Shown here piece after piece: positions 8,572-59,512 of a stretch of DNA of 64,000 nt. Under the pieces are notes generated by a model that was not told where the DNA came from, did no database searches, and saw only the letters and a list, made by a program, of their open reading frames with translations. A program made the position numbers and the translations under genes. Numbering within the stretch: position 1 is the first letter of the stretch; the number at the start of each line of letters is the position of its first letter. The stretch is taken from assembly GCA_041300025.1 (NCBI GenBank), contig JBGLNL010000001.1:1211576-1275575 (forward strand). Reading direction: 5' to 3'. The stretch is from Dehalococcoidia bacterium. Its GTDB lineage: Bacteria > Chloroflexota > Dehalococcoidia > SZUA-161 > SpSt-899.

Positions 8572-10247
8572 TGATGGAATTTAAAGGACAAAAACATCCA
8601 CAAAGCTTCTTTGAAGAATTCCCTGCGGACAGCGAATGGGATGTCGTCATTATCGGGGCTGGCCCAAACGGTCTGATCGCAGCCGCTTATCTGGCCAAAG
8701 CCGGCCTGAAAGTCGCCCTGGTGGAACGCCGCTATGAGATCGGTGGGGGATTGGCTACCGAGGAAATCCTCTATCCCGGCTACTATTCCAGCATGCACGC
8801 CATCTACCACATGATGGTGGATTACATGCCGGTGCTTCGGGACTTCGATTTGGGAAAACATGGCCTCGTCTGGATCAAGCCGAATCTGCAATGCTCGATG
8901 GTTTTCGAGAATGGCGATTCGATCCTCCTGACCCGAATGATCGAGGATACCACCGATTCAATATCCAAGTACTCTTTCAAAGATGCCCAGACCTTCAGCA
9001 AAACAATGGGAAGATGGCGGAAGATCGTTAATGATATTATCGCTCCCATGACCTATATCCCGCCCATGCTGCCAATTGAAATCACTATGGCCCTTCAAAA
9101 AGAAGAAACCGGACGGGAATTGCTGGAACTCGTGGAGCAGAGTCCGCTGGACGTGGTGACCAACCTGTTCGAGAACGACCGCGTGCGCTCGCTTTTGCTG
9201 TATAACATTTGTACGTGGGGACTGGACCCCCGTGAAACCGGTGTGGGCTTGTTCGTGGCACTCTATCTTGACCGAATGATGAACAAGTCCTACTGCCAGG
9301 GCGGCTCGCACAAGATGGCCAATTCACTGGGACGCGAGATCGTCCGCGCCGGCGGCGTCATCCTCGATTCATCCGATGTTATCGATATTCACATGAAGGG
9401 CGGCAAGGTCGCCGGTGTCGAATTGTGGGAGGGCCGTACCCTTCATACCAAATGTGTTATTTCAACACTGGATCCAAGGACTACTTTCCTCGACCTCGTG
9501 GGTGCCGAGAACCTGCCGAGTGATCTGAAAGACTCCATCGAGGGCTGGCATTATGACAAGTGGAGCTTCAACACCCTGCATACCGTCTCCGAGGAAATGC
9601 CGCGATATCTGCCCAAAGACCCGTGGGCCAGCGAGAGCTTCATGACCATATTCGGATTTGAAGGCATGGATGCCATGCTGGAGCATTGGGATAACGTGGT
9701 AGCCGGCAAACTCGATCAAAAATGCCTGGGCGGTCACGCCACCTGCGAGAGCTTCTGGGATACCCATCTCGTTCGGGTTCCCCCTGAGAAAGCACACCGG
9801 CAGGTGTCCTTCTTCCAGCATCATGCCCCGTACAACCTCGAAAAAGGCGGCTGGGATAAAAGGGGACCGGAGATCGAGAATATGATCCTGAAAAAATGGG
9901 CCAAATATGCTCCTAACATGAAAAAGGAGAATATCGTCCAGACTAACCAGGAGACGCCAAAGGATATCGAGATCCGCTTCCCCAACATGCGCTACGGCTC
10001 GATTAAACACGGCGATTACCGACCGGTCCAGCTCGGTTGCTTCCGGCCGAATCAGGATTGCTCGAGCACCAAAACCCCTGTTGAAGGACTGTACGTCGGC
10101 GGCGCATCCGTTTATCCCGGTGGCTGTGTGCTCGGCGGCGGCGGCTATCAGGTAGCAAACAAGGTAATTGAAGACCTTGGCGGTAAAAAGTGGTGGAAAC
10201 CAACCAGAGAAATGGAGCGGTGTATTAAGACTTACCTCGGAGGGTAA
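8572..10247 (+). CDS. FAD-dependent oxidoreductase, CrtI/phytoene-desaturase-like family
   Basis: [23 protein letters not shown] motif. RBS AAAGGAGG followed by ATGATG at 8572. The ORF track's upstream extension overlaps the previous gene. Confidence 0.85.
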
Positions 10248-21267: not shown

Positions 21268-21411
21268 GGGGAAAGGTTATTTTCATAACCCGCGACTGTC
21301 ATCAAAACCGAAGTCCGGTAGTTTGTGAAACTATGAAATTGATCCGCTTTCCCCAGGGTTTTGGTATTTTGGTTCGCTGTTATCATAAATAGCCTCAAGC
21401 CGGTTGTCAAT

Positions 21412-21510
21412 TACCGCTTTTTCAGCCCCCTCGATCCCCTAATCATGGGGGAAGTTTAGATTGGGGGACACCCCCAGACCCCCGAAGTCACCACTTGTTC
21501 AAAAGGTTCC
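21412..21510 (-). repeat. GC-rich hairpin repeat element (GGGGGACACCCCC core), copy A
   Basis: TTGGGGGACACCCCCAGACCCCCGAAGTCACCACT shared with the copies at 38.9, 47.8, 57.0 and 59.4 kb. Confidence 0.7.
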
Positions 21511-22536
21511 TTAAATTATCAGCATGGCGTCCCCAAAACTGTAAAAGCGGTAATCATTCCGAATGGCTTCTTCGTATGCTGCCAGTATCCGTTCCCTCCC
21601 GGCAAAGGCGGCCACCAGCATTAGCAGGGTCGACCTCGGGAGATGGAAATTGGTAATAAGCGTATCCACAGCGCGGAACTCGTAGCCGGGCAGAATATAC
21701 AAATCATTCCAGCCAGTTACCGAACACACTTCCCCATCAGGTTGAATTGCCCGCTCCAGCGACCGCACCGCCGTAGTCCCGACGGCCACGATGCGCCGTT
21801 TCTCCTTTTTTGCCTGATTCAATTTCTGAGCTGTGCTGGCACTCACTTCAAAATATTCACGGTGAAGAGAATGTCCTGCGGGGTCCTCGGACTTGACCGG
21901 ACGGAAAGAGCCGAGCCCGACATGGAGGGTCACAAAAACCAGTTCGATTCCCATCGCAGCAATTCTATCCAGCAAAGCGGGAGTAAAATGCAATCCGGCG
22001 GTTGGAGCCGCCACGCTGCCTTTGGTTCTGGCATAGACCGTTTGATAGCGCTCGGGGTCATCAACCGGTTTGTGGATATATGGGGGCAGGGGCACCTCGC
22101 CGAGATCCTCCAGTAATTCTTCATTATGCAGATGTACCATCACTGTTCCGTTTTCATTTTTCGATTGTACCTCAACCGTGATGCTGCTCTGCTTTTCTTC
22201 GGATTCAATTTCCACCACCGTCCCCGGCCTGACGCGCTTCCCCGGCCTTGCCAGAGACTCCCAGATTGAATCGCCAACCCGGTTCAAAAGGAGAAATTCT
22301 ATCCTCGCTCCACCGCCAGCCTTGTGTCCCAGCAGTCTGGCGGGAATGACCCGGCTTTCGTTTAACACCAGCACATCACCTGATTTAAGATAATCGATGA
22401 TCTCAAAGAAACGGCGATGCTCTATCGAACCATCCGCCCGATTAAGAACCAGCAGGCGCGAATAATCCCGCGGTTCGACCGGGGTCTGAGCAATCATCTC
22501 TGAGGGAAGATAGTACTCGAAATCGGAAGTTTTCAT
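21511..22536 (-). CDS. queA: S-adenosylmethionine:tRNA ribosyltransferase-isomerase
   Basis: MKTSDFEYYLPSEMIAQTPVEPRDYSRLLVL N-terminus. 341 aa. Confidence 0.9.
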   Translation of the reverse strand: MKTSDFEYYLPSEMIAQTPVEPRDYSRLLVLNRADGSIEHRRFFEIIDYLKSGDVLVLNESRVIPARLLGHKAGGGARIEFLLLNRVGDSIWESLARPGKRVRPGTVVEIESEEKQSSITVEVQSKNENGTVMVHLHNEELLEDLGEVPLPPYIHKPVDDPERYQTVYARTKGSVAAPTAGLHFTPALLDRIAAMGIELVFVTLHVGLGSFRPVKSEDPAGHSLHREYFEVSASTAQKLNQAKKEKRRIVAVGTTAVRSLERAIQPDGEVCSVTGWNDLYILPGYEFRAVDTLITNFHLPRSTLLMLVAAFAGRERILAAYEEAIRNDYRFYSFGDAMLII

Positions 22537-26311: not shown

Positions 26312-26600
26312 CTCCTTCAAAGTCCACCGCAGAGATAATAAAAAACCCCCGTCCCAAAGGGGCGGAGGTTTATCCGCGGTGCCACCCTTTTTAACCGGAT
26401 ACGCTTACAGTACCGGTTATCTTCTTCAGGTACGGCCCTTTTAGCTGGCGATACCCCGGGCTCTGATAACGGTGCCCTTTCCGGCAAAGCCTACTTTCAT
26501 TAGCTGATTTCGGTTTGCGGCTCCCAGGTCCATTCCCATCTGAATCGTATGTACCGGGCTCTCACCTTCCCCGGCTCTCTGTGACTCGCCTTCAAGAGGT
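26312..26600 (-). ncRNA. T-box riboswitch leader (probable Trp specifier UGG) with intrinsic terminator
   Basis: Minus-strand AAAAAGGGTGGCACCGCGG matches the T-box consensus. It is followed by CCTCCGCCCC-TTT-GGGACGGGGG plus a T7 terminator. Upstream are an AGAGAG GA-motif and an AAUGGA specifier candidate. Confidence 0.6.
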
Positions 26601-26918
26601 ACTATTCCTGTTCACAGCCTTTTGGCGCTATTCAATTGTTAATTGCAGAAGTCAATATACAGATTCCCGATGGATTTGTCAAATGCCGCTGCCTTTCAAT
26701 GGGAAATGATCCTGAAGGAGAAATCGGTTTTCAGCGATGTATGAAGTGAATTGACAGGAGGTTACATTTTTGTTGGAGAGGATATCTGAGTTCGTTAATC
26801 TGTCTTTAATCTGAGTGAGGTATAGTGGAATTTTAAGATATACTGTATAGTGTTGTCTGGCATGGCAGAAAGAGATAATTTACATAATGCCACTTTGATT
26901 ATAGAAGGAGAGCCGGGT

Positions 26919-34122: not shown

Positions 34123-34202
34123 GATTTAAATTTCGCCTCCTTTGTGAATATTGCTCATGTTAATCTCGCCCTGATGGGAAATCCACGAATATCATGTTAA
34201 GG

Positions 34203-34355
34203 AATCCCTGATCAACCCCCTGTATCCCCCAATCTTGGGGGAAGTTTGTATTGGGGGACACCCCCAAAACCCCCGGCAGGAAGAATCCTGCACCTCTTTT
34301 CGGATAGCCTGCCACCGAAGTTGGGGGGCCACCCCCCATATCCCCGAAGTCCCCA
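34203..34355 (-). repeat. GC-rich hairpin repeat element, composite copy B
   Basis: TTGGGGGACACCCCCAAAACCCCCGGCAGGAAGAATCCTGCACCTCTTTTC is shared in reverse orientation with the 57.55-kb copy. Confidence 0.7.
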
Positions 34356-34357
34356 TT

Positions 34358-35110
34358 TTAGATAATGACTCCCTGTTCCTTCATGGCGGAAAGCTCGTCC
34401 CAGCTATAGCCGTAATCCATAAGGACTGTTTCCGTATCCTGCCCCAGTTCCGGGGCCAGCGTTCTGATGGTTCCCGGTGTCTCGCTGAAAGTGACCGGCG
34501 AGTGAATCATCTTGAACTTGTAATTGCTGGCTGGCTCCGTTACTTCCTCGAAGAAGCCGTTCTCGTATGCCTGCGGATCGTTTGCTACATCCAGCGGTGT
34601 TTGCACCCATCCCAGCACAATATCAAAATCCCTGGCGATTTGATCCCATTCGGTTGCTGTTTTAGTTGCCGCTATTTTATCCATTTCCGGGATCAGATAC
34701 ATGTTCTGGGCAATCCGTTTCTGATGGGAATTGAACCTTTCGTCTTTCTCCCATTCAGGTTTACCGATAGCCCTGCAGAAGCGATCCCAGAAGAGATCCG
34801 TCTGGGGCATGACGAACATGATCCATTTCTTATCCTTTGTTTTATAGACATTCCACATGAAGTTGGTGACTCTGGTTCTATCGGTTTTAGGGATGTTAAC
34901 ACCAACGTTTAGCGCCGCACCGATATCAAAGGCAGCTCCAAAAACGGCGAAATGGTAGAGGTTGACTTCAACTTTCTGGCCTATGCCCGTTTTCTCTCGA
35001 GCGTAAAGGGCGGCCGAAATGGCTCCGGCAATGCATGGCGCAACCTGGTTATCTCCCAGACCTGCTCTCTGCGGACGGGGATCTGCATCGGTTGAAATGC
35101 GATCCATCAT
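34358..35110 (-). pseudogene. family III CoA-transferase (CaiB/BaiF), lacking the N-terminal ~150 residues
   Basis: It starts at the conserved AALYAREKTGIGQKVEVNL segment. There is no GxRVLDL N-terminal region. Confidence 0.65.
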
Positions 35111-38897: not shown

Positions 38898-38980
38898 TCA
38901 CTCCAAACCGTGGGGAAGGGGAAGATAGGGGGACACCCCCCCAGACCCCCGAAGTCACCACTCATTCACAATATTCCTTA
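38898..38980 (-). repeat. GC-rich hairpin repeat element, copy C
   Basis: GGGGGACACCCCCCCAGACCCCCGAAGTCACCACT. Confidence 0.7.
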
Positions 38981-39343
38981 ACTTGACTGACCGGAATTCC
39001 TTAGATTCTTAGCCCCTCTGATATATATGTGCTCGATCTCGTCAGCGGATTTCTCGGTGTTATATAGAATCAAAATCCGGATGCACTTCTGCAGGCTGCC
39101 GGGCACGTTCATTTCATGTCCGCACATAAGCGCTGTATTTGTCCACCCCATCTGGCGTGCCGCCAGAGCCGGAAATTCGGCATTAAGGTCTGCGGTAGTG
39201 GTGAAAAAAGCGCAAGCCGCTTCGTCCGCCTCAAGCTGATTAGCCTTAATCATTTTATCCAGAAGTTCACTGGTGCCTTGAAGGATCGATTCCCTGGTAT
39301 TTTCACTAACGGTGGTTGCTCCTCTAATTCCACGGCAGCGCAT
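38978..39343 (-). CDS. aroH: chorismate mutase, AroH class
   Basis: RGIRGATTVSENTRESIL... 121 aa. Confidence 0.8.
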   Translation of the reverse strand: MRCRGIRGATTVSENTRESILQGTSELLDKMIKANQLEADEAACAFFTTTADLNAEFPALAARQMGWTNTALMCGHEMNVPGSLQKCIRILILYNTEKSADEIEHIYIRGAKNLRNSGQSS

Positions 39344-44706: not shown

Positions 44707-45744
44707 CTAATCTGGCCAGTAAAGTTTTTTGGCTTCTTTTTCCAGTTCGGCACGGAAGTTCGGGTGAGCCACGCCGATCAGTTCCATGGCCCGTTCTCGC
44801 TGGGTTTTCCCTTTTAGTTTTGCTATTCCGTATTCAGTGACGATAGTGTCAGACAGCGTTCGTGGTGTACTCACCACAGTTCCGGGCATGAGTTGCGGCA
44901 CAATTCGCGAAGTTTGCCCTCCCTTGGCTGTGGAAGAAACGGCTGTAATGGCTCGTCCGCCATTGGAGAGATAAGCACCGATGGCGAAGGCGGTTTGCCC
45001 GCCTGCCCCGCTCATCATTTTGGTGCCGATAGATTCAGCGGAAATCTGGCCTGTGAGGTCGACCGAGATGGCGCTGTTGATGGCTACCACATTATCGTTT
45101 TCTGAAATTATTTTGGGGTTCAAAACATAGCTGGAAGGATGGACCTCAAATACGGGGTTGTCATTGATGAAATCCATCTCTTCCTTTGAGCCTCCGCCAA
45201 CAGCCGTAGCAACCGCCTTTCCGATATTTATCTGCTTGCGCTTGCCGTTGATGACGCCGTTCATAACCAGCGTGCCAATACCACGCGGAGTATTTTCAGA
45301 GTGCCAGCCGAGGTCAACTTTGTTCTCGAGTACGCCGAGTTTAGCTACCCATTCCGCGGTACCGCCGACCCCGATCTCCAGGCAGTCCCCATCATTAACC
45401 AGTTCGCCGATATATCCGGCAATCGTCTTTTCCAGTTCGCCGGGGCCGGTTGTTTTGCGGCCCAGCAGATCGGTGCCTCCGGGGGTAATTCCTGAAGGCG
45501 TGTGTTCGACAAAATAGTCGATATCGGAAACATGAATTCGGTTTTCTCCGTATGTTCGAATAACGTTTTGATTGATCTCCGCCAGTACAACTCTGGCTTT
45601 TTCACAAAGGGCTTTCTTGTTCCAGCATGAGGCCCCGAAACTGCAGAATCCATGTTCATCCGGGGGCCCGATTTGGATCATATAGGCATCGATAGGCTTC
45701 ATCCAGGGAACGTCGGCTGAGGCGTAGAAGTGCCGACCTGCCAA
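44707..45744 (-). pseudogene. acetyl-CoA hydrolase/transferase-family CoA-transferase lacking the N-terminal ~100 residues
   Basis: It begins at the IDAYMIQIGPPDEHGFCSFG segment. There is no ATG until MKPID. The frame opens right at the end of the upstream gene. Confidence 0.65.
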
Positions 45745-46307
45745 AACACGTTACAGGCTGGATCACTACCGCTATTGATTTCCATAACGGACGAATTGCT
45801 TGCGGTCGTGAGCGCACTCCCTATCTTGAAAACGAAGACCGAGTTGGAGTCGCCCTGCATATCGAGAGTGAGTATCCCCGTCAACTGAGCCGACGTCGAA
45901 AAGCAGTAGACGCCCGGTGTGAGTGTCAATCCACCTAAATCCGAACCGGTCAAGTTGGTACCGCACGGTTGGATCGCTAGAGCATTATATGCGGTGACCA
46001 CATCATCCTGAGCGGTCATCGCAACCGCATCAGTCTGGTGTATATTTCCTATGACTGTTCCCGGTCCCTCATTATCCACCGTGCCAAAGAACCCCGTTAT
46101 TGAAGTACCCGCATAAAGACCCAAATCCCCGGTGACGACGGTCGGACCGGTATTGGTCACTGTCGATGCGCCCAGGACTGCGAAGTCATCGGCCGCTCCC
46201 AATGATGGTGCCACGGCTTGCGCCAGAGCCAGACCGGAGGTAGCAACAATGGCTACAATAATAACCGTTGTGAGTATCCATAATTGAGCTGTCTTTTTTA
46301 GTTTCAT
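45699..46307 (-). pseudogene. DUF3494 ice-binding-like secreted protein, C-terminally truncated after CNVFWQVG
   Basis: Signal peptide. ADDFAVLGASTVTNTGPTVVTGDLG, LTLTPGVYCF and CNVFWQVG motifs. The distal beta-helix repeats are missing. Confidence 0.6.
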
Positions 46308-46614
46308 TTCTTCTCCCTGTTATTTGGTAATTAAAGTATGTTACTTATATTGTTATTTTTATGTGAGTATATAAACATCCTCTTTGCTGAGTATATTACT
46401 ATGAAACAAGAGTATTTGTCAAGTCATCAGGGCTCCCGGATTTTGAGGTTCGCGCTGCCTGGCTTCCATCGCTGGCCCCCCCCTTTAATACATTTCCATA
46501 TACCGTTAATCGGCACTTTGGTGCGACTTTTGACTACCGTTCTACCCCCCACATCCCTGCTTGTCAACTCATATTTGTTACCACCCATTAGATTAGCCGA
46601 CCGACACTATTATG

Positions 46615-46676
46615 CCTGTCCCATCCCCGCCTGCGAGGTTTGTGGCACCGGGATACAAAGGAGCATGCTTATATTA
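46615..46676. promoter_or_regulatory. conserved ~60-nt intergenic motif, copy 1 (CCTGYCCCATCNCCNCCTGCGAGGTTTGTG...CATGCTTA)
   Basis: Near-identical to 50358-50418. Confidence 0.45.
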
Positions 46677-46740
46677 GTAAAGGGGAACGCTATCCGGCTC
46701 GTGGATATTGAGTGCTGGCAGATTATGTAGTGCGGATTAT

Positions 46741-47100
46741 GAAGAGCATGAGATAGGAGACAAGCTGGAAGAGCAGGAAAAACTCGAAAAAAAGGAGGAA
46801 CGGAATGGATGAATTAAAAAACAAAGAGCGGGAAGAGATTGACGAATTAACGATCAACGAGCATGCGATGGGAGACATGCTGGAGAGCAAGAGAAACTCG
46901 AAAGAACAAGGAGGAATGGAATGGACACAGCAGTAAAGAACAATGGGCATGAGACGGAAGACAAGCTGGAAGCGCAGGAGAAACTAGTAAAAAAAGGAGG
47001 AAAAGGAATGAACACAACAGTAAAGACCAATGAGCATGAGACGGAGATCAATGAGCATGAGATGGGAGACCAGATGGAAGTGCTGGAGAAACTCGATGAA
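46741..47100 (+). repeat. degenerate tandem repeat, period ~110 bp, ~3.5 copies, each with an SD+ATG
   Basis: Reiterated GAGCATGAGATGGGAGAC...AAGCTGGAAGNGCAGGAGAAACTCG...AAAGGAGGAANGGAATGGA units. Confidence 0.65.
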
Positions 47101-47466
47101 ATTATGGTCGAGGGTGAAACCAGCATTGATGACGACGTTGTAGCTGCTATCGCCGGGGTGGCGGCACAGGAAGTCGAGGGTGTTGCCAGCATGGGAACCG
47201 CCTCCATTCAACGTTCTATCTCGGAAGTCGTCGGCCGATCCGAGAAACGATCCAGAGGTGTAGAAGGCGAGCATGGCAAGAAAGAGGCGATCGTCGACCT
47301 CACACTGAAGGTGAATTACGGATTCAGTATTCCCGAGATAATTATTCAGGTTCGCAAAAATGTCGCTATGCGTCTTCTGGATCTATGTGGACTGATTGTT
47401 AAAGAAGTCAACATAACTATAGCCGGCATTGAATTCCCGGAGAAAGTATCCGACACATTGAAATAG
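46921..47466 (+). CDS. asp23: Asp23/Gls24-family alkaline shock protein with repeat-derived N-terminal extension
   Basis: DDVVAAIAGVAAQEVEGVASM Asp23 core. The true start may be an internal Met (47033 or 47063). Confidence 0.75.
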   Translation: MDTAVKNNGHETEDKLEAQEKLVKKGGKGMNTTVKTNEHETEINEHEMGDQMEVLEKLDEIMVEGETSIDDDVVAAIAGVAAQEVEGVASMGTASIQRSISEVVGRSEKRSRGVEGEHGKKEAIVDLTLKVNYGFSIPEIIIQVRKNVAMRLLDLCGLIVKEVNITIAGIEFPEKVSDTLK

Positions 47467-47798
47467 TTAATAATCTGAATCCGTGGAAGGGATAGGAGAG
47501 AGGGGATTTTATTTCTTAATCTTCTTTCTTTGCAAGTTGTTCTGAGGCATGCGCCCCACTCGAAGGCGTGAGAGCCTATTTAAAGGCATCTTCTCACCCA
47601 TGAGGTGAAGATTATATGTACTTTAAGACAAAGTCAGGGCGGGGGACGGATCAACTTGCCAGCCATTCAGGCTTGATCCCTGATGGTGGGCAATACTGGA
47701 CAAGAGTAATGTGCGAGAGCGATTAAAGGCGGTAGTGTTGCTCGAATATCCCTCCACGGATTTTAGGTGATAACCCGGAGATAAAATTCTATAACTAA

Positions 47799-47895
47799 GG
47801 AACCTTGTGAATAAGTGGTGACTTCGGGGGTCTGGGGGTGTTCCCCCAGCTTCCACCTTTCCCCAGGTTTGGGGTGATACAGGGAGTTGATCACA
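47799..47895 (+). repeat. GC-rich hairpin repeat element, copy D
   Basis: GGAACCTTGTGAATAAGTGGTGACTTCGGGGGTCTGGGGGTGTTCCCCCAG. Confidence 0.7.
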
Positions 47896-47933
47896 AGATT
47901 CCCAAAATAAGCACTGAAGTGTGGTAAATAAGT

Positions 47934-48506
47934 ATGAATATTTTTAATCGAGTAATAATTGTGGTTGCTGCCCTTGTTATACTGGCCGGATTAGTGATAA
48001 CAACACTCGTAGCGGCTAACGTGACTGATCCTGACGTTCTTTTCTCAGGTTGGTTCGAATCACAATTCAAAGATGTCGCTGATTTAAGCGGTGGCGCGGT
48101 AGCTGGTGTCATGGCAGCCAGCATCTTCATTGCATTTGGAATAATCTTCTTACTCATATTGGAGTTGATACCATTCCGCAGGCCGGTTCTATTTTTGCTC
48201 AGCTCGAGCGAAAATGGTATTGCCGTGATTGAAAAGGATAGTATCCGTGAATTGGCGGAGCATACGGCCATCTCGTTTCGAAATGTACGCGATGCAACGT
48301 GCAAAGTGGTGAAAAACGGAGAAAAACTGATGGTAATTTCTTGCCATGCATCATTGCCACTGGGCAGCATCATATCTGAGATAACGGCCGAACTCCAGTC
48401 GAAAATCAAGAATACGGTGGAGGAACACACCGGGCTGAAGGTCCGCCAGGTCGATGTTGAGAGTAAATATGAATCAGGGCAGGCCAAACACTTGGCTCTG
48501 CGTTAA
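47934..48506 (+). CDS. amaP: alkaline-shock membrane anchor protein AmaP-like
   Basis: N-terminal TM. Genomic linkage with the asp23 and DUF2273 genes. Confidence 0.55.
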   Translation: MNIFNRVIIVVAALVILAGLVITTLVAANVTDPDVLFSGWFESQFKDVADLSGGAVAGVMAASIFIAFGIIFLLILELIPFRRPVLFLLSSSENGIAVIEKDSIRELAEHTAISFRNVRDATCKVVKNGEKLMVISCHASLPLGSIISEITAELQSKIKNTVEEHTGLKVRQVDVESKYESGQAKHLALR

Positions 48507-48521
48507 GGGAAGGATTGAAAT

Positions 48522-48737
48522 ATGTGGAATCGACTTTTAAATCCAAAGTTACTGGGCGTTATTATAGGACTGATTATAGGGCTGGTGGTGATACTCGCCG
48601 GCGCACTCGATGCTTTTATCTTGACTCTTTTTATTGTAGCAGGATGGCTGATAGCGAAGTTCTGGATGGGTGAGTTTGATTTGATTGATGTATACGAGCG
48701 ATTTCTGCGAAGCAGGGGAAAAAGACAACAACAATAA
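48522..48737 (+). CDS. DUF2273-family small membrane protein
   Basis: 71 aa with two TM segments. Typical partner of the amaP and asp23 genes. Confidence 0.55.
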   Translation: MWNRLLNPKLLGVIIGLIIGLVVILAGALDAFILTLFIVAGWLIAKFWMGEFDLIDVYERFLRSRGKRQQQ

Positions 48738-48927
48738 GGTTGGGGTCAAGTCAGTTTATCAAAAGTGAGTTGTGTGAGATCTCATGGCATCAAACGAGTT
48801 GAGTGAGTTTGTGTTAAAGGTCATTACGCAGTGAATCACGACGTTTCAAAAGCGAGTAAGTCAACAATAGCATCGTTCAAATGCAATATGGGAACGAAGA
48901 GTGATTTTTAGAAAGGAGGTGATTAAA

Positions 48928-49062
48928 ATGCCGAAGGGAGATGGCAAAGGCCCCCCAGCTGGGGCAAAAGGACCTCGCGATGGTCAAGGCAAAGGTAAAG
49001 GCCAGGCATCGGGCAAGGGTGTCGGTGAGCGTAAGGGCGGTAAGAAAGGCGCCTGCAAGTAA
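48928..49062 (+). CDS. 44-aa Gly/Lys-rich small protein ending in GACK
   Basis: Strong RBS AAAGGAGG-7nt-ATG. The ORF-track 48941 frame lacks an RBS. Confidence 0.35.
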   Translation: MPKGDGKGPPAGAKGPRDGQGKGKGQASGKGVGERKGGKKGACK

Positions 49063-49132
49063 AGCAGCGGCCCCCCTGGAGGTTCCACAACCCGGCCCAG
49101 TCAAAATCGAAATTCTTAAAGGAGAGCTACCA

Positions 49133-49312
49133 TGAAATCGAGCATTAGAGATAAGACTGAAGGAAAGTTTCACAAAATGAAGGGGAAGGTCAAGGAGGCC
49201 GCCGGGAAAGTCAGTGGTAATCCTGAGTTGGAAGCTGAGGGTACCGATGAAAAGATAACCGGCACAGTGCAGGGAAAGATCGGTCAGGTCAAGAAAGTCC
49301 TGGGTAAGTAGC
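49133..49312 (+). CDS. csbD: CsbD-family stress protein
   Basis: KTEGKFHKMKGKVKEAAGKVSGNPELEAEG CsbD motif. Confidence 0.75.
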
Positions 49313-49455
49313 GAGCCCCGCGGGGCTTATCTGATACCAAACAGAAAGAGGTCGCTTATGAAAAACAGCAGCCTCTTTTTTTGCAATAGGTTCGCCACGG
49401 CAGAAGGCCAGCTTATGATCTATGACCAAACCAGGACCGATAGTATTTGGGACCC

Positions 49456-50211
49456 TCAGGCAACTAACGCCAGCTCAGATTGGGCTTCAGGGTCAGTGGT
49501 GATACCGTTGACAGGATTGCCCACGATACCTGCCTGGGCCGCGATAATAGACGCATGGGTGCGGCTGCGCGCCTGCATCTTGTCAATGACGTTCCGGACA
49601 TGCTTCTTGGTAGTATCCAGGGTGATACCCAGGCTTGCGGCGATTATCTTGTTCGAGTCCCCATTGCCCATGAGCCTTAGCACATCGACTTCCCTCTCGG
49701 TGAGGTGAGCAGCCTCAGCCGTGCGCTCGGCAAGCGTCTTCCGGCCATTCTGAATCAGATTCTCCACGGCAGTATGCAGCAATGCCGTCGTCATCTGGGT
49801 GCCACCCTCGACCACACGATGGATGCTTTGCACCAACGATTCCGGTGACATGTCCTTGAGGAAGATGTACCCCCCCGCACCCGCGTGTATGGCGTCAATG
49901 ACATAAGAATCGTTGATGTTCTCCGTCAGGACCATGACAGCTACCCCCGGGAATTCCTCCTTGATAAGCCTCGTCGCTTGCACGCCATCCATTTTGCCGT
50001 TCCGGGTCTCGGTCAACACTACTTTGATAGGACGTCCCCGGGTATGTGCTCGTTTAATATGCAGAAGAGCGTCATTCCCATCCTGAGCATCTCCAATCAC
50101 TTCAATCTTCTCGTCTTTAGCCAGGATAGCCCGCAGTCCCTCCTGGACAACCGGACTGAAACCAATCATCAGTACCCCCAGAATATCGGGTTTACGGTCT
50201 TTGACTTCCAT
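49456..50211 (-). CDS. LuxR/NarL-type response regulator with atypical receiver domain (no phospho-acceptor Asp)
   Basis: C-terminal LTEREVDVLRLMGNGDSNKIIAASLGITLDTTKKHVRNV HTH. The REC domain reads LMIGFS and VLTET where the DD pair and the acceptor D are expected. GGAGG RBS before MEVKDRK. Confidence 0.7.
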   Translation of the reverse strand: MEVKDRKPDILGVLMIGFSPVVQEGLRAILAKDEKIEVIGDAQDGNDALLHIKRAHTRGRPIKVVLTETRNGKMDGVQATRLIKEEFPGVAVMVLTENINDSYVIDAIHAGAGGYIFLKDMSPESLVQSIHRVVEGGTQMTTALLHTAVENLIQNGRKTLAERTAEAAHLTEREVDVLRLMGNGDSNKIIAASLGITLDTTKKHVRNVIDKMQARSRTHASIIAAQAGIVGNPVNGITTDPEAQSELALVA

Positions 50212-50341
50212 AGTTGACACACCTCCTCGGTACACTTTAGTGTACCACTCATTACCACTTAGGCGCACTTTAAGAATAGTATTGTACCCCCCCCTCCCCG
50301 CATTTGTCAAGTCTTATCGGGGGCCATCGGTTAGGCTAGAA

Positions 50342-50434
50342 GGCCTGCACTAACATACCTGTACCATCACCTCCTGCGAGGTTTGTGCCTTCCGGATAAA
50401 AGGCACATGCTTACATCAGATACAAATGCAGGCC
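50342..50434. promoter_or_regulatory. conserved ~60-nt intergenic motif, copy 2, bracketed by the 8-bp inverted repeat GGCCTGCA/TGCAGGCC
   Basis: CCTGTACCATCACCTCCTGCGAGGTTTGTGCCTTCCGGATAAAAGGCACATGCTTACAT. An internal GTGCCTT/AAGGCAC hairpin. Confidence 0.45.
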
Positions 50435-50443
50435 CGGCGGCAA

Positions 50444-50908
50444 TCAGGAAGAGGCAAACATATTCTGGGTGATCTTCAGGCTGGGGCTGTCGGCCCGGCT
50501 CCAGAATTCCTCGAATATGCGATCGTATCCGGTTGACTTGATCTTCCACTCACCATTGATTTTGGCATATTCGTCATGATAGAAGGCTGCCCCTCTCATG
50601 GACCAGTTCCCTTGCGTATCTATCAGGTAATCTTCCAGCGCCCATGTCCCTTTGGCGGTGGTGTTGCCGGTGATTTCAATTTCAGGATGATGTCCCTGAT
50701 GCATGCTCAATCGAGTGTATGGCAGGCCCTCTTTGAAGAACTCTATAATGGCATCCCTTCCGTTATAACTGTGCGCCCCGCCGGAAAAGCTGCTTCTGGC
50801 ATCCTCGGCGAAGCATTGCCCAAGTTCATCCCATTTTTTGGAATCGAGACAGCGAAAGTATTTGTATTTCAGCCGTCTGATAGCTTCAATTTCCTCGAGT
50901 TTGTTCAT
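50444..50908 (-). CDS. SnoaL-like / NTF2-like domain protein
   Basis: 154 aa, alpha+beta cone-type fold sequence. Confidence 0.6.
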   Translation of the reverse strand: MNKLEEIEAIRRLKYKYFRCLDSKKWDELGQCFAEDARSSFSGGAHSYNGRDAIIEFFKEGLPYTRLSMHQGHHPEIEITGNTTAKGTWALEDYLIDTQGNWSMRGAAFYHDEYAKINGEWKIKSTGYDRIFEEFWSRADSPSLKITQNMFASS

Positions 50909-55138: not shown

Positions 55139-57022
55139 ATGGCTCAACTGGATAAGACCTTCCCCACGATGGATTGCGCTATCTGAATACTCGGCCCCAA
55201 AATGATGGATGCCGGTCGGCATCCCAGGATTAAACTGCTGACCTTGAGCGAGGTCGAAGAGGTCAACGGTTATGTTGGCAACTTCAAAGTAAAAGTGCGC
55301 AAAAAGGCAAGATACGTCAATGAGAAAGAATGCACTGCCTGTAACGATTGCGCTGAAGTTTGCCCGGTAACCTGTCCGGATGAATATCAGGCTGGACTCG
55401 GCACCAGAAAGGCTATTTATATCCCCTTCGCTCAGGCGGTGCCATCGGCTTATGTGATAAACCCGGAAAATTGTCTGGGAAGTAATCCGATTGCCTGCGG
55501 TAAATGTGCCGAAGCCTGCGAGAAAAAATGCATCGATTTCGATATGCAGGATGAGATAATCGAGCTCGATGTTGGAACCATCATCGTGGCTACCGGTATG
55601 GATGTGTATGATCCCACGGAGATGGATGAATACGGTTATACCCGGTTTGATAATGTGGTCACCAGCCTGGAATTTGAGCGTCTGATCTGTGCTGATGGCC
55701 CGGCGGAAGGCCACCTCGTGCGGCCCGGCGATCGCAAAACGCCCCGGCGCATCGGATTTATCCAGTGTGTCGGGTCTCGAATGGAGAATCGGGGGAATCC
55801 CTACTGCTCCAATATTTGCTGCATGAATACAGTGAAGGATAGCCTGCTCCTCAAGGAGCACTATCCCGATACCGAAATATTCGTGTTCTATATAGATATG
55901 CGGGCCTTCGGCAAGGGATTCGAAGCTATGCTGAAACGCAGCCACGAGGTTGGAGTGAATTATATCCGCGGCCTGCCCGGCAGTGTCATGGAAGACCCAA
56001 AAACCGGCAACCTGATCGTGGATGTGGAGAACACCACCGCCGGAAGGCTGGAGCAATATAATCTCGATCTGCTGATTCTCGCTGTAGGACTGGTGCCGCG
56101 CGCCGAAGGGGAGCATCTTCGCCAGATATTGAACCTTTCCAAGACAAGCGACGGATTCCTGATGGAAGCCCATCCCAAATTAAGGCCTGTCGATGCCCCT
56201 ACTCCGGGGGTTTTTCTCGCCGGGTGCGTGGAATCGCCCAAGGATGTTAAGGACAGCGTTACTCAGGCCAGTGCGGCCGCTTCCCGGGCTTCCGTTATTC
56301 TCAATTCCGATAAACTTACCGTAGAAGCCATCACCGCAGTGGTCGATAAGGAAAAATGCACCGCCTGCGGAGTCTGTGCCCGCGTGTGCCCTTACGGAGC
56401 CATCAAATTTGATAAGGAAGCAAAAGCCCCGGCGGAAGTGATCGAGGCCATGTGCGCCGGTTGCGGCGTCTGTGCCGCCGAGTGCCAGTTCGATGCTATC
56501 AGCATCCGTCATTTCAGTGATGAAGCCCTGATGGCGCAAACTGAATCCGCGGTGGCGGAAAGAGCCGACGAAAGAATAGTTGTCTTTGCCTGCAACTGGT
56601 GTTCCTATGCCGGTGGAGACGGGGCAGGCACATCACGCCTGCAATATCCGCCCAATTCCCGCATCATCCGGACCATGTGCAGCGGGCGAGTTGATGAGAA
56701 GTTCATTCTGCGGGCATTCGAACTGGGAGCAGCGATGGTGCTGGTTTCCGGCTGCCATTTTTCTGATTGCCACTACATCGATGCCAATCGGTGGGCCCAG
56801 CGCCGGGTGGATAAATTATGGAACAAGATGGAGAAGCTGGGAATACGTCCGGAGCGGTTGCAACTGGAATGGATCAGCGCGGCCGAAGGGCAGAAGTTTG
56901 CCAGTGTGATGCGCGAGATCGAAGGCATGCGCCGGAAAGTCACTGCTGAAGAGATTGAACATACGAAAAAAGTGCTCAAAGAGGATCGGGAGAAGAGGGC
57001 TAAAAAGGAAAAGAAAAAGTAG
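55139..57022 (+). CDS. hdrA: HdrA-like heterodisulfide reductase subunit fused to an MvhD domain. Probable selenoprotein (in-frame TGA at 55184). The N-terminal FAD-binding region is missing.
   Basis: The frame through the TGA reads [48 protein letters not shown], matching the HdrA consensus with Sec at the Cys position. A GGATGCC-GGTC-GGCATCC hairpin lies 21 nt after the TGA. The C-terminal [14 protein letters not shown] region is MvhD-like. The conventional ORF is 55202..57022. Confidence 0.6.
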
Positions 57023-57026
57023 CTGG

Positions 57027-57350
57027 GGAACCTCTGATTAAGTAGTGCAGGAAGCATCCTGCCGGGGGTCTGGGGGTATCCCCCAGTTTCGATCTCAGGC
57101 TGTCCGAAAATTTAGAAAAAGTGTCATTCTGAGGAATTTATGATGAAGAATCTCCGAGGCTCAGTTTTATAAAGAGATTCTTCATCCGCCCGAGGCGGAT
57201 TCAGAATGACATACCCGGGAGTTTTCAGACAACCTGAGACAAGAGGGCTGAAAAAGAGTTTCGGACAGACTGTCCGGTGAGCTTGGGAGATGGATTCCGG
57301 CTCGGAGGCCGGAATGACATATCATATTGAGTTGTCGGAGTAATAATATA
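57027..57350 (+). repeat. GC-rich hairpin repeat element, copy F, plus adjacent large inverted repeats
   Basis: GGAACCTCTGATTAAGTAGTGCAGGAAGCATCCTGCCGGGGGTCTGGGGGTATCCCCCAG. GTCATTCTGAGGAAT...ATTCCTCAGAATGAC and GAAGAATCTC...GAGATTCTTC inverted repeats. Confidence 0.65.
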
Positions 57351-57408
57351 GAGTCAGGAGTCAGAATACCCTTGACATTTCACTGATAACTGACAACCCG
57401 GAGAAAAC

Positions 57409-57543
57409 ATGCCAGAACAGGATAATTTCAAATGTCTTCGCTGCGGGTACGAGTATTCCCTCCCCAGGCCGGAGAAAAACAAGCTTGAGGAGCGGACATG
57501 TCCCAAGTGCCGCAGCAACAGCGTTCGAAAGATGGGGGAGTAA
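57409..57543 (+). CDS. 44-aa zinc-ribbon protein
   Basis: MPEQDNFKCLRCGYEY...CPKCRSNS: two CxxC pairs. Embedded between repeat elements. Confidence 0.4.
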   Translation: MPEQDNFKCLRCGYEYSLPRPEKNKLEERTCPKCRSNSVRKMGE

Positions 57544-57545
57544 TA

Positions 57546-57830
57546 CTTCAGGCTGTCTGAAAAGAGGTGCAGGATTCTTCCTGCCGGGGGTTTTGGGGGT
57601 GTCCCCCAATATAACCTTCCCCCATGATTGGGGGATTGAGGGGGTTGAAAAAGAGTTTTTAGACAGCCTGATTGAGGTGAGGGTGAATATCTCATTTGGT
57701 CGCTCTCATTCACTATGCTGGCAACCATGCTTCGCATTTCCCCCTCACTCTAACTCTCTCCCCCGAGGGGAGAGAGGACTTCATTTCCCCCTTTGGCAAA
57801 GGGGGAAATGATCAAAGGTTCCTTAACTAA
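57546..57830 (+). repeat. GC-rich hairpin repeat element, composite copy G, with additional perfect palindromes
   Basis: CAGGATTCTTCCTGCCGGGGGTTTTGGGGGTGTCCCCCAAT...GGGGGTTGAAAAAGAGTTTTTAGACAGCCTG. CTCTCTCCCCCGAGGGGAGAGAG. TTTCCCCCTTTGGCAAAGGGGGAAA. Confidence 0.7.
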
Positions 57831-59414: not shown

Positions 59415-59512
59415 GCGACAGGCTGCGCAGCCTAGCTAAGGAACCTCTGAATAAGTGGTGACTTCGGGGTTTGGGGGGTACAGGGGGTTGATCAGAGTTT
59501 CCCTAATTAATC
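59415..59512 (+). repeat. GC-rich hairpin repeat element, copy H
   Basis: AGGCTGCGCAGCCT palindrome. GGAACCTCTGAATAAGTGGTGACTTCGGGGTTTGGGGGGTACAGGGGGTTGATCAG. Confidence 0.7.

Follow-up and report, generated by a model that had tools for sequence, protein, structure and literature searches.

In this 64,000-nt stretch of a Dehalococcoidia bacterium genome (contig JBGLNL010000001.1; the whole stretch is called the window below), two conserved intergenic segments of about 60 nt, here termed copy 1 and copy 2, were found to be parts of a larger element. The working strand of both copies is the minus strand and both belong to the same module of ~240 nt, which is likely to be a DNA-level promoter/operator region of a family of orphan NarL/LuxR-type response regulators, possibly bidirectional and probably autoregulated. 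The 60-nt segments would represent the distal, best-conserved section of this non-coding module, which precedes copies of the regulator gene and would act as double-stranded DNA, that is, as a promoter with flanking protein-binding sites and neither as a folded RNA nor as coding sequence. Copy 2 would control an intact regulator gene, and copy 1 appears to have been retained after its regulator was cut at 15 codons. A first-pass annotation of the window had noticed the two segments and had considered three roles for them: as the operator of a common regulator, as a stress-regulon promoter read by an alternative sigma factor, or as a small RNA or leader; the minus working strand, the shared 240-nt module and the truncated-regulator origin of copy 1 had escaped it.

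The match between the two sites is as first described, with 50 identical positions between 46615-46676 (62 nt) and 50358-50418 (61 nt), one 1-nt gap and the same orientation. It had been judged too conserved for chance, and indeed the binomial probability of at least 50 matches in 60 is 3.6e-21 at a match probability of 0.25, with ~1.5e-11 pairs expected at the 50/60 level in 64 kb. The 15-mer CCTGCGAGGTTTGTG occurs exactly in the window at the two sites only. Similarity extends beyond the reported 60 nt: a repeat search gave 98 nt at 71% identity, and in a minus-strand reading the likeness of the two copies runs for ~240 nt, the 60-nt motif being followed in both by a CTAATCTAAT/GGTGGTAAC block and then by a promoter with a G run abutting the -10 box. 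A profile of the module family matched the window as follows, and scanning the whole window with it returned no third module match in 64 kb.

46455-46698, minus strand: copy 1, complete module before a truncated regulator gene (profile positions 7-240, E=1e-53).
50197-50433, minus strand: copy 2, complete ~240-nt module of the intact regulator gene (profile positions 18-239, E=1e-49; aligned with 77 homologues).

Surveys of other genomes tie the module to the regulator gene. A protein-based genome scan recovered 51 loci, almost all in Dehalococcoidia/Chloroflexota metagenome-assembled genomes (MAGs) and often two to three per MAG, and a profile of the two window copies gave ~30 matches, in most of the 51 protein-found loci, located upstream on the gene strand ~130 nt ahead of the start codon. 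When metagenome contigs were scanned with a DNA pattern taken from the motif alone, 90 stretches were returned; where enough downstream DNA was available, a regulator gene starts ~215 nt past the motif start in nearly all of them, and the exceptions that were examined mostly have frameshifted, truncated or replaced regulator genes, i.e. remnants like copy 1. The module is present in at least ~130 loci of Dehalococcoidia genomes and metagenomes (groundwater, peat, sediment and other samples), far beyond the two window sites. Because profile and pattern searches placed the module before regulator genes or their remnants, the motif is private to one regulator gene family, in intact or decayed copies. 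The notion of a promoter or operator shared across a regulon found no support: neither the rest of the 64-kb window nor other parts of ~750 kb of related loci yielded an additional copy of the module. Searches for parts of the module gave a similar picture: the position weight matrix (PWM) of the ACTAAAGT box found in the regulator leader had no matches in the 150 nt beyond the module and 0.07 per kb elsewhere in the 750 kb, GCACTAAAGTG with two mismatches allowed was not enriched in the window (16 matches versus 11.5 expected), and the PWM of a candidate opposite-strand promoter found nothing else in the window. We also rejected a dispersed repeat resembling repetitive extragenic palindromes or miniature inverted-repeat transposable elements (REP/MITE-like), there being two window copies only, other instances that precede the regulator gene or its remnants, and an 8-bp inverted repeat at copy 2 that is missing in the closest relatives.

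A literature search found no description of this element or of the regulator family. The element is known here for the first time, but its kind is ordinary, a promoter with flanking protein-binding sites.

Given on the strand of the regulator, which is minus in the window, the module opens with three distal boxes, AG(T/C)ATG, CCACAAnCCTC after 17-18 nt and CAGGTATGTTAGTGC after another 17 nt, in the section that contains the motif first reported. The middle blocks of the family consensus, CTAATCTAA and GGTAAC, come next, followed by the regulator promoter of sigma-70 type (TTGACA, a spacer ending in a G run, TAnAAT) and by a leader of ~60 nt that contains in the family consensus two ACTAAAGT boxes, a ribosome-binding site and the ATG. 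Box spacing is nearly fixed across the family (TATG-18-CACAAnCC-41-TAATC-23-TTGACA), and the information peaks of the family profile (78 copies) are AGTATG, GCCACAAnCCTC, CAGGTATGTTAGTGCC, CTAATCTAA, GGTAAC and TTGACA. In copy 2 the parts are placed as follows.

50343-50422, minus strand: distal section, including 50358-50418.
50406-50411, 50378-50387 and 50347-50361, minus strand: distal boxes AGCATG, CACAAACCTC and CAGGTATGTTAGTGC, respectively, as read from the sequence; among the highest-information columns of the profile, in the protein-found set too.
50281-50310, minus strand: predicted promoter, with TTGACA (50305-50310), an 18-nt spacer ending in G8 (50287-50294), and TACAAT (50281-50286).
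~50255-50268, minus strand: first, weaker ACTAAAGT-type box (GCGCCTAAGTGG), as read from the sequence.
50229-50246, minus strand: leader palindrome (box 5), perfect over 18 bp, GGTACACTAAAGTGTACC (PWM score 19.8 bits).
49456-50211, minus strand: atypical NarL/LuxR-family response-regulator gene, 251 amino acids (Pfam Response_reg and GerE).

The predicted promoter of copy 2, TTGACA-18-TACAAT, agrees with the consensus at 11 of 12 positions. Both hexamers are kept across the family with a spacer of 17-20 nt, and in its hexamers, spacing and distance the promoter conforms to the sigma-70 type; it falls outside the 60 nt of the first-pass annotation. Transcription is predicted to start ~7 nt past the -10 box, near 50274 in copy 2, which would put the originally reported motif at about -84 to -144 and the distal section at about -70 to -145. 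In a PWM self-comparison, the only internal repeats above a column-shuffle null were the ACTAAAGTG direct repeat (23 nt apart) and the palindrome TGGTACACT/AGTGTACCA. As ACTAA is found five times in the consensus, the distal motif was also considered as a series of such half-sites, an idea rejected because all distal pairs score below the shuffle null. Separately, two instances of ATAATGGTA, 34 nt apart, are found at the -10 box and in the leader (consensus positions 154-162 and 188-196; window ~50244-50285), with a similarity score of 7.8 versus a shuffle-null maximum of 8.5; the pair may be an old tandem duplication of a promoter-proximal unit or a second -10-like site.

Conservation of the module was assessed in a family alignment of 78 distinct copies of a 241-nt region, using four-fold synonymous sites of the adjacent gene (mean pairwise identity 0.61) as neutral proxy. 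Columns with a pairwise identity of at least 0.9 make up 19% of the distal motif and 32% of the interval from CTAATC to the -35 box, compared with 1.5% of the four-fold sites, and the same information peaks are seen in 23 protein-found sequences alone and so are free of search-pattern bias. The alternation of invariant columns with freely varying ones indicates constraint on the module and, judging by these alignments, purifying selection is acting on the boxes. That the similarity is functionless, left by a recent duplication or by gene conversion affecting both the regulator gene and its flank, is very unlikely. Such an origin would fit the several family copies per genome, many of them decayed, the modest divergence (four-fold sites 61-63% identical) and a private T-to-C change in the AGTATG box common to both window copies, but the invariant blocks alternate with free columns at fixed spacing, near-invariant columns are 13-20 times as frequent as among synonymous sites, and copy 1 is unchanged in relatives though the adjacent DNA has changed.

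Consensus folding of the 78 sequences with RNAalifold gave -0.06 kcal/mol and three pairs on the gene strand and -0.13 kcal/mol and four pairs on the other strand, sub-regions behaving alike. The 7-bp hairpin noted earlier does form in copy 2, but is absent from copy 1 and not conserved among the 78 homologous sequences, in which 59% of cells pair and one pair forms in 2/78; a second candidate helix pairs in 62% of cells. Covariation, proposed at the time as a check, was assessed by helix counting over the 78 sequences, and no measure for the named helices was convincingly above shuffles. Rfam had no gathering-score match for the element and, with E relaxed to 10, nothing above noise in the two intergenic regions, and the mean folding z-score is just -0.8. 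A structured RNA running through the motif on either strand, whether a 5' leader, a riboswitch-like element or a small RNA, would suit an element that is long, sharply bounded and highly conserved and that in copy 2 is able to form a hairpin; a TATAGT box ~15 nt upstream of the motif in many loci could be the -10 box of a long leader, but it is preceded by no conserved -35 box. With the lack of consensus structure on both strands, of hairpin covariation and of an Rfam match, a small RNA or leader has become highly improbable. As for coding capacity, stop codons are present in all six frames of nearly all 78 sequences, and a small open reading frame (ORF) was rejected because the tiny 4-5 codon peptides are not conserved. 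Blocks at fixed spacing, combined with the absence of pairing and of a reading frame, point to a DNA element that is read by proteins. A cis-acting DNA element, operator or promoter, had been among the original suggestions, and it is the one that agrees with the location upstream of one gene family, the near-fixed box spacing and the stress-type divergent neighbours.

The regulator encoded downstream of copy 2 looks phosphorylation-independent, as in an alignment to VraR (5hev) the acidic DD pair of its receiver domain is changed to GF and the phospho-acceptor Asp to Glu. No kinase, operon partner or other conserved gene was found downstream of it, and it scores below every NCBIfam equivalog cut-off. 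There are more than 1200 homologues, the 120 best listed being ~78-86% identical bar four near-identical ones. The gene is found in two to three or more copies per MAG, with many pseudogenised copies in metagenomes. The closest solved relatives are VraR (E=5e-24), NarL and DevR, and the recognition helix TTKKHVRNV resembles TVKTHVSNI of VraR. LiaR/CesR-type regulators bind TCAGHCTnnAGDCTGA (PMC4447274). Leader box 5, GGTACACTAAAGTGTACC, has the 7-2-7 inverted-repeat layout of a NarL/LiaR-type operator and a palindrome score above the null, and because this layout and its CTnnAG core match the LiaR/CesR site, the leader palindromes are probably operators for the regulator itself, which would bind them and control its own gene. 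Since the leader boxes come after the -10 box, the autoregulation may be negative.

Autoregulated promoters of the LiaR/VraR/CesR type (e.g. vraSR, liaIH) are the nearest known counterpart. The regulator is closest to VraR, NarL and DevR and has a similar recognition helix, a 7-2-7 inverted repeat of the module (GTACACTAAAGTGTAC, core CTnnAG) is comparable to TCAGHCTnnAGDCTGA (PMC4447274), and the element adjoins the regulator's own sigma-70-type promoter. In contrast to these systems, the palindromes are in the leader downstream of the -10 box and not upstream of the -35 box, the regulator is without a phospho-acceptor Asp and without a kinase partner gene, and the distal motif is without a LiaR-like dyad.

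The upstream neighbour of the module is divergently oriented in 73 of 87 loci, with a start codon usually only ~20-120 nt beyond the module. The families of this neighbour vary (DUF1508, PRC-barrel, YtxH, DUF3096, Ice_binding), being mostly small stress-type proteins, and in the window and its close relatives the Asp23-CsbD cluster is found there. On the opposite strand, the two strongest distal boxes read TTGTGG-N17-CAT(A/G)CT, a sigma-70 geometry with a near-fixed 17 nt, and no sigma-70-like candidate other than TTGTGR-N17-CATACT recurs there. Box spacing predicts the following sites in the window.

46640-46669, plus strand: candidate opposite-strand promoter of copy 1, with TTGTGG (46640-46645), 18 nt and CATGCT (46664-46669).
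50383-50388 and 50406-50411, plus strand: candidate equivalent in copy 2, TTGTGC, 17 nt and CATGCT.

The candidate of copy 1 faces a plus-strand cluster starting at 46806 that comprises small repeated ORFs, Asp23, Asp23-like and CsbD-like genes. We tentatively suggest, at somewhat less than an even chance, that the distal section is a shared control region of two back-to-back promoters, the opposite one of which would be weak, activator-dependent and dedicated to the divergent stress-type gene. LysR-type regulators and their targets share divergent promoter regions of this kind. The module is comparable in the predominantly divergent orientation of its neighbour, in leaving too little room for a separate promoter outside the module and in the ~72 nt of conserved sequence between its two candidate -35 boxes, but the regulator is of another family, the neighbour gene varies while the module is constant, and the opposite promoter is a prediction only.

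In Firmicutes the Asp23, CsbD and YtxH families are SigB-dependent, and the SigB consensus is GTTTAA-N12-15-GGGTAT. An alternative-sigma (SigB-like) promoter of general-stress genes on the opposite strand, as in one of the first proposals, would be in keeping with divergent neighbours that include Asp23, CsbD and YtxH, plus DUF1508 and PRC-barrel, and with GGTTTGTGGCACCGGGATACAGGGTAC on that strand, which has the geometry GnTTGT-N14-GGGTAC. Conservation peaks elsewhere, however: the only variable column forms the second base of the would-be -35 box, GGGTAC is moderately conserved, and the most conserved box, CATACT, would sit downstream of the -10 box. Nor do other stress genes of the window have a further copy of the pattern in front of them, and we consider a stress-regulon promoter of this type unlikely.

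Copy 1 shows what has become of the module where the regulator gene is no longer intact. Its parts are as follows.

46615-46676, minus strand: distal section, the first of the two segments originally reported, as aligned to copy 2.
46539-46567, minus strand: promoter-like part aligned with the family promoter, with TTGACA (46562-46567), a 17-nt spacer ending in G6 (46545-46550), and TAGAAC (46539-46544).
46419-46469, minus strand: regulator coding remnant MEARQREPQNPGALMT with its stop codon; family homology ends after CTGATGA; identical in two relatives (loci L143 and L144).
46393-46422, minus strand: separate sigma-70-like promoter upstream of the ice-binding-like gene, TTGACA-18-TAATAT (10/12 matches), outside the family module.

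The ATG of copy 1 opens a 16-codon frame, MEARQREPQNPGALMT, the first 15 codons of which are homologous to the N-terminus of the regulator family. As this homology stops after CTGATGA, copy 1 is best read as the upstream region of a truncated regulator paralogue; it does stand beside the DUF3494 gene, as had been stated, but belongs to the truncated paralogue and not to the DUF3494 gene as such. Two close relatives (GCA_041299985.1 and GCA_041299955.1; regulator 98-99% identical) have both copies in the same places and the same truncated 16-codon frame. Compared with them, copy 1 and the region toward the Asp23 cluster have 0 substitutions over ~400 nt, and the next ~75 nt have 5. On this comparison copy 1 is maintained and not decaying, presumably because the Asp23-CsbD cluster and the ice-binding-like gene still use the module. 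In nine remnants, distal and proximal upstream blocks match the consensus at 0.92, the same as in intact copies, whereas the -10 box (0.74), leader boxes (0.75) and ribosome-binding site (0.64) are eroded relative to intact copies (0.91, 0.90 and 0.95, respectively); the retention of upstream blocks alongside this erosion fits an upstream function independent of the regulator gene, in a comparison that is biased by the remnants having been found via the distal motif.

That bias is one of several points that weigh against a promoter/operator module as proposed here. The distal motif has no significant internal dyad or repeat and no likeness to the ACTAAAGT boxes above a shuffle null, nothing links it specifically to the regulator protein, and helical periodicity of the conservation profile is not significant. 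With four-fold sites 61-63% identical the family is not deeply diverged, so that part of the non-coding similarity reflects shared ancestry. The opposite-strand hexamers are weak (TTGTGG 3/6, CATACT 4/6) and below the promoter-scan threshold in most loci, the pair passing an 8-of-12 threshold in only ~12 of 98. The upstream gene of copy 2 is co-directional, and an opposite-strand promoter there would give an antisense transcript only. Finally, both the binding protein and the use of the promoters are inferred from the sequence.

A more far-reaching possibility, which we regard as rather doubtful, is that the module is a portable bidirectional cassette that travels with the orphan pseudo-receiver regulator gene and wires the genes on its far side (Asp23/CsbD, DUF1508, PRC-barrel, YtxH and ice-binding-like) into a general-stress-type circuit specific to the Dehalococcoidia. 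If true, this would explain survival of the cassette after truncation of the regulator; a further, heritable level of expression tuning might come from the G run of the promoter spacer. Most Dehalococcoidia are uncultured. The module provides a precisely delimited regulatory region, complete with the positions and spacing of its boxes and with a candidate regulator; should the regulator bind it, the module would also give access to a stress circuit particular to this lineage. The regulator is also an example of a receiver domain without a phosphorylation site that is nevertheless kept in several copies per genome. The module is of value for annotation and as a guide to experiments and not as a new mechanism.

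The gene context given in the first-pass annotation was right according to Pfam, with DUF3494 and Asp23 around copy 1 and SnoaL and the response regulator around copy 2. The neighbouring genes are the following.

45699-46307, minus strand: Ice_binding/DUF3494 gene (Pfam).
46921-47466, plus strand: Asp23 gene (Pfam).
50444-50908, minus strand: SnoaL_4 gene (Pfam).

The ice-binding-like gene encodes 202 amino acids in the window versus 509 in close relatives. After it comes an acetyl-CoA hydrolase/transferase ORF, the N-terminal domain of which gives only a partial Pfam match, and the interval 44707-46307 (minus strand) looks like a rearranged patch of gene fragments. On the other side of copy 1, four copies of a 49-nt unit, along with 75-nt units 87 nt apart, occupy 46744-47101 (plus strand) just before the Asp23 gene; together these repeats give rise to a series of short reading frames that resemble one another and each have a ribosome-binding site.

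At copy 2, window and relatives are wholly different beyond ~50423, and identity begins exactly at the distal edge of the module. This rearrangement breakpoint (50423-50445 in the window versus 9765-9790 of locus L143) separates a co-directional SnoaL gene here from a divergent VWA-domain gene in the relatives. The 8-bp inverted repeat said to bracket copy 2 is present, GGCCTGCA at 50342-50349 (one base off the position implied earlier) and TGCAGGCC at 50427-50434, but the DNA that holds its right arm is window-specific and replaced by other sequence in the closest relatives, so that the repeat is incidental and does not belong to the element. That the motif is the end or recombination site of a mobile cassette carrying the regulator gene is, in our estimation, scarcely credible. 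The multi-copy gene, its truncated copies and variable neighbours, some of them HTH_17/excisionase-like, a serine recombinase near one copy and the breakpoint at the distal edge in the window are what such a cassette might leave behind, but distance and orientation to the start codon are constant with a consensus promoter in between, no terminal inverted repeat is conserved (the 8-bp one being window-specific), the module profile has no match in viral contigs, and no conserved downstream partner or second end was found.

A G run lies directly upstream of the -10 box in each module; in the family the run measures 2-11 G and the spacer 17-20 nt, and copy 1 has an additional G run next to its ribosome-binding site (46479-46486). 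Between the window and the two near-identical relatives, the sole differences in copy 1 are one-base changes of G runs, and the run of copy 2 is also one base off, giving three one-base G-run differences in all. They could stem from strand slippage, which would tune the promoter, or from errors in sequencing homopolymers. Neisseria, Bordetella and Haemophilus have phase-variable promoters whose -35/-10 spacer contains a homopolymer. The module is similar in that the run (up to 11) abuts the -10 box, the spacer length varies with the run and the window and close relatives are one base apart in run length, a likeness that concerns the proximal promoter and not the motif first reported. Phase variation found no support among near-identical metagenome copies, 11 pairs of which have equal runs; the differences seen could be homopolymer sequencing errors.

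Elsewhere in the window, G/C-rich dispersed repeats occur in both orientations (e.g. GGGGGACACCCCCAGACCCCCGAAGTCACCAC) at 21393-21517, 34197-34379, 38903-38984, 47796-47873, 57020-57677 and 59433-59506, one copy being inside the Asp23-CsbD cluster. The first-pass annotation had allowed that the motif might be part of a dispersed repeat family, but the element is distinct from this one and the repeats are unrelated to the motif studied. A T-box leader is located at 26355-26624 on the minus strand (Rfam RF00230, 115.5 bits).

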